From: a virus
Taxonomy: Duplodnaviria; Heunggongvirae; Uroviricota; Caudoviricetes
DNA length: 5,421 bases
IMG/VR virus record: IMGVR_UViG_2663763171_000006
Reading direction: 5' to 3' (one strand)
The translations under genes and the position numbers were made by a program. The notes below the pieces were generated by a model, which was given only the letters and a program-made list of their open reading frames with translations, made no database searches and was not told where the DNA came from. Each line of letters starts with the position of its first letter. The stretch's first letter is position 1. This document shows positions 11 to 5,421 of this stretch, one piece after another.

Positions 11-226
11 ATGTATCAGATGGAAAAAATATCAACAGGCATTGCCTACGGCACCTCCGCCGGCAGTGCCGGCTACTGGTTTTTGCAGTGGTTGGATCAG
101 GTCAGTCCATCACAGTGGGCTGCGATTGGTGTGCTGGGAAGTCTGCTTCTGGGGCTTCTGACTTATCTGACAAATCTGTATTTCAAAATAAGAGAAGACA
201 AGCGTAAGGCTGCGAGAGGTGAATAA
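11..226 (+). CDS. S: Phage pinholin (class II holin, phage 21 S21-like) with holin/antiholin dual start
   Basis: 71-aa ORF with two predicted TM segments ([22 protein letters not shown] and [23 protein letters not shown]) and a charged C-terminal tail ([13 protein letters not shown]). Near-identical, from memory, to the phage 21 S21 pinholin. Two in-frame Met codons at 11 and 20 (MYQMEK...) give the classical 71/68 antiholin/holin pair. The stop overlaps the next start (TAATG at 224-228). Confidence 0.85.
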
Positions 227-723
227 TGTCGCCATCATTACGCAAGGCTGTTGCAGCTGCTATTGGTGGTGGGGCTGTTGCTATAGCATCTGTGTTAATC
301 ACTGGCCCAGGTGGTAACGATGGTCTGGAAGGTGTCAGCTACATACCATACAAAGATATCATTGGTGTATGGACTGTATGTCACGGACACACCGGAAAAG
401 ACATCATGCTCGGTAAAACGTATACCGAAGCAGAATGCAAAGCCCTCCTGAATAAAGACCTTGCCACTGTCGCCAGACAAATTAACCCGTACATCAAAGT
501 CGATATACCGGAAACAACGCGCGGCGCTCTTTACTCGTTCGTTTACAACGTGGGCGCTGGCAATTTCAGAACATCGACGCTTCTTCGCAAAATAAACCAG
601 GGCGATATCAAAGGCGCATGTGACCAGCTACGTCGCTGGACATATGCTGGCGGTAAGCAATGGAAAGGGCTGATGACCCGTCGTGAGATTGAGCGTGAAG
701 TCTGTTTGTGGGGGCAGCAATGA
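226..723 (+). CDS. R: SAR endolysin (T4-lysozyme-like muramidase, GH24; phage 21 R21-like)
   Basis: 165-aa ORF. N-terminal Gly/Ala-rich weakly hydrophobic signal-anchor-release segment ([23 protein letters not shown]) is followed by the lysozyme catalytic triad positions E35, D44, T50 ([18 protein letters not shown]). SD-like AGAGGTGA sits upstream, and the start overlaps the holin stop. Position immediately after the pinholin matches the pinholin/SAR-endolysin pairing. Confidence 0.85.
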
Positions 724-1184
724 GCAGAGTCACCGCGATTATCTCCGCTCTGGTTATCTGCATCATCGTCTGCCTGTCATGGGCTGTTAATCATTACCGT
801 GATAACGCCATTACCTACAAAGAGCAGCGCGACAAAAACGCAAGAGAACTGAAGCTGGCGAACGCAACCATTACTGACATGCAGCAGAGACAGCGTGATG
901 TTAATGCACTCGATGCTAAATACACGAAGGAGTTAGCTGATGCGAAAGCTGAAAATGAAACTCTGCGCGCTGATGTTGCCGCTGGTCGTCGTCGGTTGCA
1001 CATCAAAGCAGTCTGTCAGTCAGTGCGTGAAGCCACCACCGCCTCCGGCGTGGATAATGCAACCAGCCCCCGACTGGCAGACACCGCTGAACGGGATTAT
1101 TTCACCCTCAGAGAGCGGCTGATGACGATGCAGATGCAACTGGAAGGGGCACAGGAGTATATCCGCACTCAGTGCATTAAGTAG
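720..1184 (+). CDS. Rz: Rz i-spanin (inner-membrane spanin subunit), lambda Rz-like
   Basis: N-terminal TM helix ([20 protein letters not shown]) followed by a coiled-coil-like periplasmic domain; translation closely matches lambda Rz as I recall it. I place the start at the ATG at 720 (MSRVTAII...), which overlaps the endolysin TGA (ATGA at 720-723), rather than at the GTG at 708 used by the ORF track. Confidence 0.85.
940..1122 (+). CDS. Rz1: Rz1 o-spanin (outer-membrane lipoprotein) embedded in the +1 frame of Rz
   Basis: 60-aa ORF wholly inside Rz in another frame. It has a signal peptide with lipobox (LPLVVVGC, Cys20), a proline-rich mature region ([13 protein letters not shown]) and an AAGGAG SD 7 nt upstream of the ATG. 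It closely matches lambda Rz1 from memory. The true start may be Met1 (940) or Met6 (955). Confidence 0.8.
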
Positions 1185-1226: not shown

Positions 1227-1577
1227 ATGCCATCACTAATCCCACGTGCCTGCCGTAAGCGTGGATGTGCAGGTACAACCACAGACAGTTCGGGTTACTG
1301 CGATAAACATCGCGGTGAAGGCTGGGTGCAGCACCAGCGCGGACTGAGCCGCCACCAGCGTGGCTATGGCTCAAAATGGACGGTGATTCGTGCCCGTATT
1401 CTGAAGCGCGATAAAGGTCTGTGTCAGTTGTGTCTGCGTGTCGGTGTGGTGAGCGAGGCGAAAACCGTCGACCACATCATCCCGAAAGCGCATGGCGGAA
1501 CAGACGCAGACAGCAACCTGCAGAGTCTGTGCTGGCCCTGCCATAAAGCGAAAACAGCGCGCGAACGAATCCGGTGA
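1227..1577 (+). CDS. HNH endonuclease (terminase-associated, HK97 gp74-like role)
   Basis: 116-aa ORF with Cys pairs (CRKRGC, CQLC, CWPCH) and an HNH core (TVDHIIPKAHGGTDADSNLQSLCWPCH). GAGGT SD lies 4 nt upstream of the ATG. It sits immediately upstream of the terminase small subunit, as in HK97-type packaging modules. Confidence 0.8.
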   Translation: MPSLIPRACRKRGCAGTTTDSSGYCDKHRGEGWVQHQRGLSRHQRGYGSKWTVIRARILKRDKGLCQLCLRVGVVSEAKTVDHIIPKAHGGTDADSNLQSLCWPCHKAKTARERIR

Positions 1578-1659: not shown

Positions 1660-1698
1660 ATACCCGCGAAAAATGAAATTTAACCAGGAGTGCCGCAT

Positions 1699-2193
1699 AT
1701 GGCTGGAACGGCGGGGCGTTCCGGGCGTCGCCCCAAGCCAACGGCGCGCAAGGCGCTGGCCGGAAACCCCGGCAAGCGAGCCCTGAACAAAGATGAACCT
1801 GTTTTTACGCCCATCAAAGGTGTTGAGCCACCAGAGTGGTTCGCTGAAGAAGATCTCCCTCTCGCCACGATCATGTGGCAACTGACAACCAAAGAACTCT
1901 GCGGTCAGGGCCTGCTGTGCGTGACTGACCTGGCGGTACTTGAGCGGTGGTGCGTGGCCTATGAGTTCTGGCGACGTGCCGTGAAAAATATTGCCATACA
2001 GGGCAACACCATCACCGGTGCAATGGGCGGCAGGGTCAAAAATCCGGAGCTGACCGCCAAAAAAGAACAGGAGTCCGAGATGAGCAGCACGGGGGCAATG
2101 CTCGGACTCGACCCCAGCAGCCGCCAGCGTCTGATTGGCCTGGCGGGGCAGAAGAAAGCCACTAACCCGTTTCTGAAAATTATCGAATCATGA
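1699..2193 (+). CDS. Terminase small subunit (P27 family-like)
   Basis: About 165 aa with a basic N-terminus ([22 protein letters not shown]) and conserved position between HNH and large terminase. AGGAG SD at 1686-1690 sits 8 nt upstream of the ATG at 1699; the GTG at 1690 used by the ORF track lies inside the SD and is unlikely to be the start. The stop overlaps the large terminase start (ATGA at 2190-2193). Confidence 0.7.
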
Positions 2194-3923
2194 GCCGGAA
2201 ATCTTACCCCAACGTAAATGCTGCAAATCAGTATGCCCGGGATGTCGTGCGCGGAAAGATTGTTGCCTGCCAGTTTGTGATTCAGGCCTGCCAGCGCCAT
2301 CTTGATGACCTGATGGCGGAAAAAAGTAAGTCGTTTCGTTACCGCTTCGACAAGGACCTGGCTGAACGGGCCGCGAAATTTATTCAGCTGTTGCCGCACA
2401 CCAAGGGGGAGTGGGCATTCAAACGGATGCCCATCACGCTGGAGCCGTGGCAGCTATTTGTGATCTGCTGTGCGTTTGGCTGGGTCAATAAAGGCACCCG
2501 GTTGCGCCGCTTCCGGGAGGTGTACACCGAAATCCCCCGTAAGAACGGCAAATCAGCAATCTCTGCCGGTGTTGCCCTGTATTGTTTTGCCTGTGATAAC
2601 GAGTTTGGCGCGGAAGTGTATTCCGGTGCCACGACAGAGAAACAGGCGTGGGAAGTCTTTCGCCCGGCGCGACTGATGTGTAAACGCACACCCATGCTGA
2701 CGGAAGCGTTCGGGATTGAGGTTAACGCCTCAAACATGAACCGTCCGGAGGATGGCGCGCGGTTTGAACCGCTGATCGGCAACCCAGGTGATGGTTCATC
2801 ACCCCACTGTGCCGTGGTTGATGAATATCACGAGCATGCCACCGATGCGCTTTATACCACAATGCTTACCGGGATGGGGGCGCGACGTCAGCCACTGATG
2901 TGGGCCATCACCACCGCCGGGTACAACATTGAGGGGCCGTGCTACGACAAGCGGCGGGAAGTCATCGAGATGCTCAACGGCTCGGTGCCTAACGATGAAC
3001 TGTTCGGGATCATCTATACCGTTGATGAAGGTGACGACTGGACCGGCCCGCAGGTGCTGGAAAAAGCCAATCCAAATATTGGCGTGTCGGTTTATCGCGA
3101 ATTTTTGTTAAGTCAGCAGCAGCGTGCGAAAAATAACGCCCGTCTGGCAAACGTCTTTAAAACAAAACACCTCAATATCTGGGTGTCGGCGCGTTCGGCG
3201 TATTTCAACTTGGTGAGCTGGCAGAGCTGCGAGGATAAATCACTGACCCTTGAGCAGTTCGAGGGGCAGCCGTGCATTCTGGCCTTTGACCTGGCGCGTA
3301 AGCTGGATATGAACAGCATGGCGCGACTTTATACCCGCGAGATTGACGGTAAAACGCATTACTACAGTGTGGCCCCGCGTTTCTGGGTACCGTATGACAC
3401 GGTGTACAGCGTCGAGAAAAATGAAGATCGACGGACAGCCGAACGCTTTCAGAAATGGGTGGAAATGGGCGTTCTGACCGTTACCGATGGTGCGGAGGTG
3501 GATTATCGCTACATCCTCGAGGAGGCCAAAGCGGCGAACAAAATCAGCCCGGTCAGTGAGTCACCCATCGACCCCTTCGGGGCGACCGGGTTGTCACATG
3601 ACCTTGCTGATGAAGACCTGAATCCCGTCACTATCGTCCAGAACTTCACCAATATGTCCGATCCGATGAAAGAGCTGGAAGCAGCGATTGAATCGGGACG
3701 TTTTCATCATGACGGCAATCCCATCATGACCTGGTGTATCGGCAACGTGGTCGGCAAAAACATGCCGGGTAACGATGATGTGGTGAAACCCGTCAAAGAG
3801 CAGGCGGAAAACAAAATCGATGGTGCAGTTGCGCTGATTATGGCGGTTGGCAGAGCCATGCTGTACGAGAAAGAAGACACGCTGTCTGACCACATTGAGT
3901 CCTACGGGATCCGCTCGCTTTAA
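2190..3923 (+). CDS. Terminase large subunit (Terminase_1 / HK97-type TerL: ATPase plus nuclease)
   Basis: 577-aa ORF with a Walker A-like motif ([12 protein letters not shown]), acidic Walker B-like segments (e.g. CAVVDEYHE) and a C-terminal nuclease-like region containing acidic residues. Size and synteny (TerS, TerL, portal) are typical. Confidence 0.85.
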
Positions 3924-3934
3924 CTGAGGTAATT

Positions 3935-4117
3935 ATGATCATGCTGATTCTCGCGCCTCTGGTGGGCGTGCTGGGTGCGCTTTTGCTGGCGTATGGTGCC
4001 TGGCTGATTTATCCCCCGGCGGGTTTTGTTGTTGCCGGGGCGCTGTGCCTGTTCTGGTCGTGGCTGGTGGCGCGATATCTCGACCGTACACGGCAGTCTG
4101 TCGGCGGAGGTAAATAG
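3935..4117 (+). CDS. Hypothetical small membrane protein (60 aa, two predicted TM helices)
   Basis: GAGGT SD lies 5 nt upstream of the ATG. Two hydrophobic helices ([22 protein letters not shown] and [19 protein letters not shown]) are separated by a PPAG turn, with a basic C-terminal tail. Host-like codon usage (CTG, GCG, GTG rich). The 3' end carries the SD (GGAGG 4106-4110) and overlapping start (TAGTG) of the portal reading frame. Confidence 0.5.
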
Positions 4118-5273
4118 TGTTCTTTTCGGGATTATTTCAACGAAAAAGCGATGTGCCGGTGACCACGCCAGCAGAACTGCTGATGCTATCGGGCTGTCAT
4201 ACGACACCTATACCGGAAAGCGGATCAGTAGCCAGCGGGCCATGCGCCTGACGGCGGTCTATTCTTGCGTCAGGGTGCTGGCAGAGTCTGTTGGTATGCT
4301 GCCCTGCAGTCTCTACAAAATCAGCGGTACCCTGAAAACACGGGCGGTGGATGAACGACTGCATAAGTTGGTTTCGGCAAAACCTAATGGCTACATGACA
4401 CCGCAGGAATTCTGGGAGCTGGTTATTGTCTGCCTGTGTCTACGGGGGAATTTTTACGCCTACAAGGTAAAGGCACTGGGAGAAGTGGTGGAGCTTCTTC
4501 CGATAGATCCGGGCTGTGTGGAACCGAAGCTGAACAGCCAGTGGCAGCCGGTTTATCAGGTGACGTTTCCGGATGGTTCCGTGGATGTGTTGACCCAGAA
4601 TGAAATCTGGCATGTGCGCACCCTGACGCTGGATGGACTTGTCGGGCTGAATCCCATTGCGTATGCGCGTGAGGCCATTTCACTGGCAGCGGCAACCGAG
4701 GAGCACGGTGCCAGGTTGTTTAGTAATGGTGCGGTGACATCCGGTGTGTTGCGTACGGAACAAAAGCTCACGCCGGATGCTTACGAGCGTCTGAAGAAAG
4801 ATTTTGAGGAGTGTCACACGGGGCTTGGCAATGCTCACCGCCCGATGATTCTGGAAATGGGGCTGGACTGGAAGTCGATGGCGCTGAACGCCGAGGACAG
4901 TCAGTTCCTGGAAACCCGCAAGTTTCAGCTGGAAGAAATCTGTCGTCTGTTCCGGGTGCCGTTGCACATGGTGCAGAACACCGATCGCGCCACCTTCAAC
5001 AATATCGAAGAGCTGGGGCTGGGATTTATCAACTATTCACTGGTGCCGTATCTGACCCGCATCGAACAGCGGATCAACACCGGACTGGTACGAAAAAGTA
5101 AGCAGGGCGTTTATTACGCCAAATTTAACGCCGGGGCGTTACTGCGCGGGGATATGAAGTCCCGTTTTGAAGCCTACGCCACCGGGATCAACTGGGGAAT
5201 TTACTCTTCCAATGACTGCCGCGACCTGGAAGATATGAATCCGCGTCCCGGTGGTGTAATGCCGATCAGTTAA
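4117..5273 (+). pseudogene. HK97-family phage portal protein, apparently disrupted (N-terminus in a different frame; 3' end abutting or interrupted by an IS element)
   Basis: A strong start (GGAGG, 6-nt spacer, GTG at 4117) opens a frame encoding a portal-like N-terminus (FFSGLFQRKSDVPVTTPAELLMLSG) that stops at 4249-4251. The conserved portal core (TGKRISSQRAMRLTAVYSCVRVLAESVGMLP ... LLRGDMKSRFEAYATG ... LEDMNPRPGG) is in the -1 frame (the ORF track's 4026..5273 frame). That frame has no ATG or GTG between 4035 and 4242 and a Cys/Arg/Trp-rich out-of-frame-looking N-terminus. The reading frame ends inside the inferred IS terminus. Confidence 0.6.
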
Positions 5274-5305
5274 GGATCAGTTGACCGATCCAGTGGCTGT
5301 GTAAG

Positions 5306-5340
5306 AATCCGGAAACGCTCACTTGTTTCCGGATTTTTTT
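5306..5340 (+). terminator. Perfect 11-bp hairpin plus T-run immediately upstream of the transposase start (intrinsic terminator / translation-occluding structure)
   Basis: AATCCGGAAAC (5306-5316) pairs perfectly with GTTTCCGGATT (5325-5335) around the 8-nt loop GCTCACTT, followed by a 7-T run at 5334-5340 (the first two Ts are in the stem). The ATG at 5341 follows at once. Confidence 0.5.
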
Positions 5341-5421
5341 ATGCACATTGGACAGGCTCTTGATCTGGTATCCCGTTACGATTCTCTGCGTAACCCACTG
5401 ACTTCTCTGGGGGATTACCTC
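5341..5421 (+). CDS. IS4-family (DDE) transposase, N-terminal 27 codons (partial, 3' truncated by window end)
   Basis: ATG at 5341 follows the hairpin/T-run directly with no SD. The translation MHIGQALDLVSRYDSLRNPLTSLGDYL is recalled as the start of the IS4 transposase (InsG). Only 81 nt are visible. Confidence 0.5.
   Translation, partial: MHIGQALDLVSRYDSLRNPLTSLGDYL

Follow-up and report, generated by a model that had tools for sequence, protein, structure and literature searches.

This locus raises the question of which mobile element ends the portal gene of a phage-like sequence, and how the rest of that gene came to be parted from it. The window, by which we mean the whole stretch of 5,421 nucleotides analysed here (IMG/VR virus record IMGVR_UViG_2663763171_000006, Caudoviricetes), is 100% identical over its entire length to six Shigella sonnei chromosomes, including that of Ss046 (CP000038). 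The first-pass annotation, made from the window alone, had proposed that an IS4-like element was inserted at the 3' end of the portal gene of a defective prophage, whose head module is decaying while its lysis and terminase genes still look intact. The S. sonnei loci with which the window was compared were retrieved using the terminase protein as the query.

The prophage remnant and its broken portal gene

The features of the window are collected in Table 1. The open reading frames for the holin, lysozyme, Rz/Rz1, HNH endonuclease, TerS, and TerL are all full length compared to the Pfam models and the phage relatives, and the packaging genes share 93–95% DNA identity with those of the Shigella phages SfII, SfIV, and SfI and of related E. 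coli prophages. An Rz1-type lipoprotein frame (940-1122, lipobox VVGC) lies in another frame inside Rz, which is the usual spanin arrangement and seems intact. The 60-residue frame between TerL and the portal gene gave no match in Pfam; it is kept in SfII, under the label integral membrane protein, and in E. coli prophages, under the name ymfR.

Table 1. Positions of genes, lesions, and IS4 parts in the window.
Feature	Position	Strand	Evidence
Holin, P21-type	11-226	+	Full-length profile match
Lysozyme	226-723	+	Full-length profile match
Rz	708-1184	+	Full-length profile match
HNH endonuclease	1227-1577	+	Full-length profile match
Small terminase (TerS)	1690-2193	+	Full-length profile match
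Large terminase (TerL)	2190-3923	+	Full-length profile match
YmfR-like membrane protein, 60 aa, hydrophobic	3935-4117	+	Between TerL and portal
Portal remnant, HK97-family, codons 1-380 of 413, GTG start	4117-5256	+	PF04860, TIGR01537
1-base (G) deletion, frameshift at portal codon 21	4178-4179	+	CTGGCG in 4/4 intact relatives, CT-GCT in the window
12-bp target-site duplication, left copy GTCCCGGTGGTG	5245-5256	+	Same 12-mer directly after the IS4 right end, L021 4197-4208
Junction-encoded tail V-M-P-I-S and TAA stop, replacing the native 33 C-terminal residues	5256-5273	+	Translation of ORF 4026-5273
IS4 nucleotides 1-165 of 1426 (window ends inside the element)	5257-5421	+	165/165 identity to K-12 IS4
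IS4 left terminal inverted repeat TAATGCCGATCAGTTAAG	5257-5274	+	16/18 match to right end TAATGCCAGTCAGTTAAG
Hairpin with T-run (seven T's) in IS4, directly upstream of the transposase start	5303-5338	+	RNA fold
InsG (IS4 transposase), first 27 codons	5341-5421	+	27/27 identical to K-12 InsG from ATG 5341

The portal frame matches PF04860 (E = 3e-107, positions 2-321 of 321) and TIGR01537 (E = 3e-78, positions 3-343 of 343), and its DNA is approximately 93–95% identical to the portal genes of E. coli A36, SfIV, SfII, and vB_EcoM-720R4. In all four of these intact relatives, the gene starts with GTG and has 1242 nt encoding 413 residues. The upstream frameshift suspected in the first-pass annotation was confirmed by comparison with these relatives, as a G is missing from codon 21 of the window. 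Independent complete S. sonnei genomes carry the identical sequence, which rules out a read error; gene callers split or shorten the portal gene on S. sonnei genomes.

The last 33 of the 413 portal codons, which encode the native tail DVYLTPMNMTTKPSDGSKAGKQKDNANADETTS in the relatives, are missing from the window. Homology stops at positions 5254-5256 in every alignment, both with intact E. coli prophage portals and with those of SfII, SfIV, SfI, and vB_EcoM-720R4. The portal frame reads ...DMNPRPGG and then continues with the five junction-encoded residues to a stop codon within the 18-bp IS4 terminal repeat; the native C-terminus is thus replaced by residues from the IS end, exactly as had been read from the window alone. 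In the relatives, the prohead protease gene overlaps the 3' end of the portal gene and the capsid gene comes next. The portal gene of the window is a pseudogene of the HK97 family, inactivated twice, by the IS4 insertion and by the frameshift, and not a functional member of that family.

In the chromosome, the remnant spans 9,967 bp between an IS2 and the IS4, and carries genes for a DnaB-like helicase, RusA, antiterminator Q, and ORF6N, four tRNAs, the lysis cassette, HNH, the terminase, and the broken portal. The tRNA cluster (Met-CAT, Arg-TCT, Thr-TGT, and Gly-TCC; L010 6831-7141) is located a short distance upstream of the window, with the Q region on one side and the lysis cassette on the other. 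The IS2 at the left border (L010 1770-3100) links a fragment of the host autotransporter (adhesin) gene ypjA to the DnaB-like phage gene. It has no 5-bp duplication (GTTGC on one side and GCGTT on the other), and therefore the early region has also been lost or moved by an IS-mediated event. Short-read assemblies often yield a contig near the remnant length (9,960 bp in L012), and 4,305 assembly blocks contain the terminase protein of the remnant, from which we conclude that the configuration is fixed and widespread in S. sonnei. This lysis/terminase fragment of about 10 kb is an IS-bounded remnant unable to build heads, in line with the defective prophage originally proposed.

The element is IS4

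The sequence switches exactly at 5256/5257, and everything from there to the end of the window is identical to IS4 at the insG locus of E. coli K-12 MG1655. This segment matches 2,634 E. coli records (E = 3e-80), with the matches annotated as insG or IS4 family transposase. The coordinates given for an IS4-like element in the first-pass annotation were thus exact, and the frame starting at 5341 is indeed the N-terminus of the IS4 transposase. The S. sonnei loci L006-L008 carry an uninterrupted copy at the same place, which is 1426 bp long and, aligned over all 1426 positions in L006 and L007, 99.6% identical to K-12 IS4. Its ends, of which the left repeat alone lies in the window, fit the IS4-subgroup signature -AATR--------WTW, and its length falls in the range of 1400-1650 bp given for the subgroup (PMC2266710).

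The transposase was tested for the DDE and YREK features on the full copy in L006, the window carrying codons 1-27 only. It is encoded by a single open reading frame of 442 residues, is of the DDE type, and matches PF13006 (E = 3e-33) and PF01609 (E = 8e-32), named Nterm_IS4 and DDE_Tnp_1 in Pfam, as well as NCBIfam NF033592 (304 bits; cut-off, 115). At residues 307-321 it carries the Y(2)R(3)E(6)K motif, YSHRWEIELGYREIK. The element is IS4 itself, beyond merely IS4-like. IS4 is the founding member of the IS4 family (PMC2266710) and is among the five ISs expanded in all Shigella species (PMC7373316).

RNA folding revealed a hairpin in front of the transposase gene (-22.3 kcal/mol, z = -6.6 against shuffles), which was also found as an inverted repeat; a consensus terminator scan made no call at 5303-5338, and folding was needed to bring the hairpin to light. 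It resembles an intrinsic terminator and would insulate the transposase from read-through of the phage late operon. The NCBI annotation starts insG at TTG 5323, inside the hairpin and six codons upstream of the classical ATG. Upstream of the hairpin, the left end of IS4 contains a single sigma-70-like match (5281-5308; TTGACC, 16 nt, AAGAAT), which is a match to the consensus only.

Flanks of the resident IS4 and the reciprocal junction

The first-pass annotation had expected the right inverted repeat, a target-site duplication, the remainder of the portal gene, and the protease and capsid genes to follow beyond the window. The right inverted repeat is present. The duplication and the phage genes are not found in the nine S. 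sonnei chromosome loci, where host DNA, with no portal remainder or phage genes, stands behind the right end of IS4. Two arrangements occur: GCTCATTGAGCA... and bamE-recN-nadK-grpE come after the right end in arrangement (a), and CAGCCCTTGAGC... and raiA-pheL-pheA-tyrA-aroF in arrangement (b). Neither right flank repeats the left flank GTCCCGGTGGTG, so that no target duplication surrounds the resident IS4 in any of the nine loci. In the Ss046-type genomes (L010 14190-15520; L003-L005, L009, and L011), an IS2 of 1331 bp splits IS4 after nucleotide 1122. This nested IS2 is flanked by a perfect 5-bp duplication, GTGTC, and the transposase is reduced to about 374-380 aa. In the arrangement (b) genomes L006-L008, IS4 is uninterrupted by IS2.

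Both right junctions are known from other genomes. An identical IS4/bamE junction is found in three E. coli genomes, where IS4 has simply inserted between yfjF and bamE in the same orientation, with an 11-bp duplication, GCTCATTGAGC. The IS4/raiA junction occurs in 337 of 5,426 E. coli genomes, and such an occupancy of the raiA site suggests a strong target preference of IS4. The resident IS4 has hybrid flanks while each of its right junctions is canonical, and we therefore attribute the present configuration to recombination between IS4 copies. The missing flanking duplication is explained by the same recombination, and the assignment to IS4 is unaffected by it.

The two host sites lie within terminator-like hairpin stems, AAAAAAGGTGCTCATTGAGCACCTTTTTT (yfjF/bamE) and AAAACGGCAGCCCTTGAGCTGCCGTT (bamD/raiA) (L013, L014 2985-3030; L018-L020 ~2700-4160), whereas the portal target site has no terminator hairpin. 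The target preference of IS4 is presumably AAA-N20-TTT; judged by eye on these three sites, both terminator sites fit this pattern and the portal site does not obviously do so. The portal/IS4 junction was found in none of the complete E. coli genomes in the collection, the best matches covering the portal part only (89% of the query). Exact-pattern scans of species-representative genome contigs, among which S. sonnei is apparently not represented, found neither the portal/IS4 junction nor its reciprocal, and a metagenome pattern scan for the yfjF-terminator/IS4 junction found none.

The other half of the portal gene was located by scanning viral contigs for the IS4 right end followed, after 0-14 bases, by portal codons 381 onward. 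The scan yielded one contig, L021, which reads ...CTGACTGGCATTA / GTCCCGGTGGTG / ATGTCTATC... at this point (in a longer form, ...AACTGACTGGCATTA / GTCCCGGTGGTG / ATGTCTATCTC...). In translation, the sequence gives PGG, the 33 missing portal residues (codons 381-413), and a stop, and farther downstream follow the genes for the prohead protease, major capsid protein, head-tail connector, head completion protein, tail tube, and a 1081-aa tape measure. The portal remainder and the protease and capsid genes expected behind the element thus stand, together with the duplication, at this reciprocal junction. An ungapped alignment of the L021 phage DNA with the window gives 99.88% identity, and the codon-21 frameshift is therefore common to both. 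The right junction with its 12-mer shows an ordinary transposition of IS4 into the portal gene; the 12 bp duplicated fall within the 10-13 bp taken as the criterion for the IS4 subgroup.

Only this right junction of L021 is trustworthy. To the left of IS4 nucleotide 69, the contig contains one N, an inverted hairpin loop, and a 386-bp duplication, and looks misassembled; its left half was set aside as evidence for an empty site or a simple insertion on these grounds. At L021 2443-2860, an apparently intact portal 3' end and 386 bp of the protease gene precede the N and IS4 from nucleotide 69 with the loop inverted, and the same 386 bp appear again after IS4 with 99.2% identity. The repeat is most likely a scaffolding artefact, and it may alternatively come from a second prophage copy in that genome.

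Given the element identity, exact junction, truncation, frameshift, absence of a local duplication, canonical foreign flanks, and reciprocal junction with the 12-mer, all of which are observed, we assign a probability of about 85% to an IS4 insertion into the portal gene with a 12-bp duplication, followed by IS4-IS4 recombination, in the form of inversions, that parted its two halves. An ancestor of S. sonnei would have harboured a lambdoid prophage, with a packaging module like that of SfII/SfIV and a head of the HK97 type, and IS4 would have transposed between codons 380 and 381 of its portal gene, duplicating GTCCCGGTGGTG. Through this insertion, the portal gene lost 33 codons and was parted from the overlapping prohead protease gene and the capsid gene, with the IS4 terminal repeat providing five codons and a stop; the 1-base deletion also inactivated the portal.

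Homologous recombination of the portal IS4 with the IS4 copies in the yfjF/bamE and bamD/raiA terminators would later have inverted chromosomal segments, with the orientations of the copies taken from the junctions. Arrangement (b) would result if the bamD/raiA and portal copies recombined in a first inversion, and arrangement (a) if the portal copy then did so with the yfjF/bamE copy in a second, the net effect of the two being the apparent 45-kb and 20-kb inversions. In present-day genomes with this window, a single IS4 would thus connect the left portal/IS4 junction with bamE or raiA, and the right junction (IS4, duplication, portal 3' end, and head and tail genes) would be located elsewhere. 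According to this model, genomes with arrangements (a) and (b) would retain the IS4 right end followed by GTCCCGGTGGTGATGTCTATC, and the junction string CTGACTGGCATTAGTCCCGGTGGTGATGTCTATC would occur once per genome. The order of these events is what we infer, as is inversion over deletion.

A survey of S. sonnei reference genomes in 2026 described IS4-flanked inversions, confirmed by long reads; every lineage 2 genome has one of about 45 kb, and that of lineage 3 covers about 20 kb (PMC12795559, Table 4). The inverted content comprises raiA...bamE, IS4, and yfjF-ratA-smpB-ssrA with about 18 phage genes (PMC12795559). In L006, an arrangement (b) genome, the genes to the right of IS4 follow the start of that list one by one. 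Judging from the same table, the reciprocal junction in genomes carrying this window probably lies elsewhere in the chromosome.

The best surviving alternative, which we consider unlikely, is a deletion, either between direct IS4 copies or adjacent to IS4, in which the portal 3' end was lost along with the head and tail genes and yfjF-ratA-smpB-ssrA. A single IS4 links the portal to bamE in arrangement (a), the yfjF-ratA-smpB-ssrA block is away from its usual place beside bamE, the IS4 orientation at both junctions is that expected for a deletion between direct copies, and IS copies without duplications often mark deletions (PMC11708052). However, the survey table for lineages 2 and 3 still includes yfjF, ratA, smpB, ssrA, and about 18 phage genes, inverted between IS4 copies (PMC12795559), two successive inversions among three IS4 copies yield both observed arrangements, and ssrA and smpB are not genes whose loss would be expected. 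For individual genomes, deletion between direct IS4 copies is a minor alternative.

A simple, undisturbed IS4 insertion, the default for an IS, would place the right repeat, the duplication, the rest of the portal gene, and the head genes approximately 1.4 kb past the end of the window. Such a right junction does exist in the near-identical prophage of L021, but in nine of nine S. sonnei loci the IS4 right end meets bamE-recN-nadK or raiA-pheA-tyrA with neither a duplication nor phage genes. As a general account this reading is very improbable, and it is refuted for genomes with this window; it may still fit lineage-1 genomes.

The position of the ssrA block differs between genomes. In the Ss046-type genomes, yfjF, ratA, smpB, and ssrA (tmRNA) do not stand beside bamE, unlike in E. 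coli (L010 15830-16220 and L013 1037-3000, respectively), and no tmRNA gene was found within 10 kb of the window. According to PMC12795559, the block is retained elsewhere, in an IS4-flanked invertible segment. That the three IS4 copies form a recombination hub which repeatedly reshuffles the ssrA/smpB and raiA-to-bamE blocks, with some backgrounds deleting tmRNA and SmpB or altering their expression, seems to us a slim prospect, slightly below that of a simple insertion; such a deletion or altered expression, if true and lineage-specific, could have physiological consequences. An assembly artefact (a chimeric join at the repeat) or a coincidental IS-like end can be dismissed almost entirely: misjoins are often due to IS elements and the window ends inside a repeat, but the extent of the match argues against chance, at least nine complete chromosomes, independent of one another, share the junction with four IMG/VR contigs, the assembly blocks with the terminase protein include many contigs of the IS-to-IS length of about 10 kb, and the inversions were confirmed by long reads (PMC12795559).

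Comparison with known systems

The IS4 insertion is real but ordinary, and IS4, its expansion in Shigella, and the inversions have already been published. The present analysis adds local detail only: the insertion after codon 380, the 12-bp duplication, the hybrid flanks, and the nested IS2. It matters little beyond the correct annotation of the S. sonnei portal pseudogene. The portal IS4 copy is one breakpoint of the published lineage-defining inversions, and the locus offers a worked example of a duplication-less IS copy traced back to an ordinary insertion through its reciprocal junction.

Compared to K-12 IS4, the S. sonnei element is identical over nucleotides 1-165 and agrees with it in the full copy described above, including the 16/18 terminal repeats; the 442-aa DDE/YREK transposase differs from K-12 InsG at three residues. 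In contrast to the K-12 element, the S. sonnei copy lies in a prophage portal gene, has hybrid flanks, and is split by IS2 in the Ss046-type genomes. The order of the genes beside this IS4 copy, raiA, pheA, tyrA, aroF, yfiR, IS, IS21... or bamE, recN, nadK, and grpE, agrees with the ends of the 45-kb and 20-kb IS4-flanked inversions of PMC12795559. That survey does not state that one flanking IS4 lies in a portal gene, nor does it state a target duplication; both come from the present analysis.

SfII, SfIV, SfI, and vB_EcoM-720R4 have TerS, TerL, the YmfR-like protein, and the portal in the same order as the window, with 93–95% DNA identity. In these phages, an intact 413-aa portal is followed by the protease and capsid genes, whereas the portal of the window is frameshifted and truncated. 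Unlike SfII and SfIV, the window has a P21-type lysis cassette upstream of these genes. Behind the reciprocal junction, the tail genes are of a lambda/HK97-like kind; E. coli A36, by contrast, carries a tail-sheath gene.
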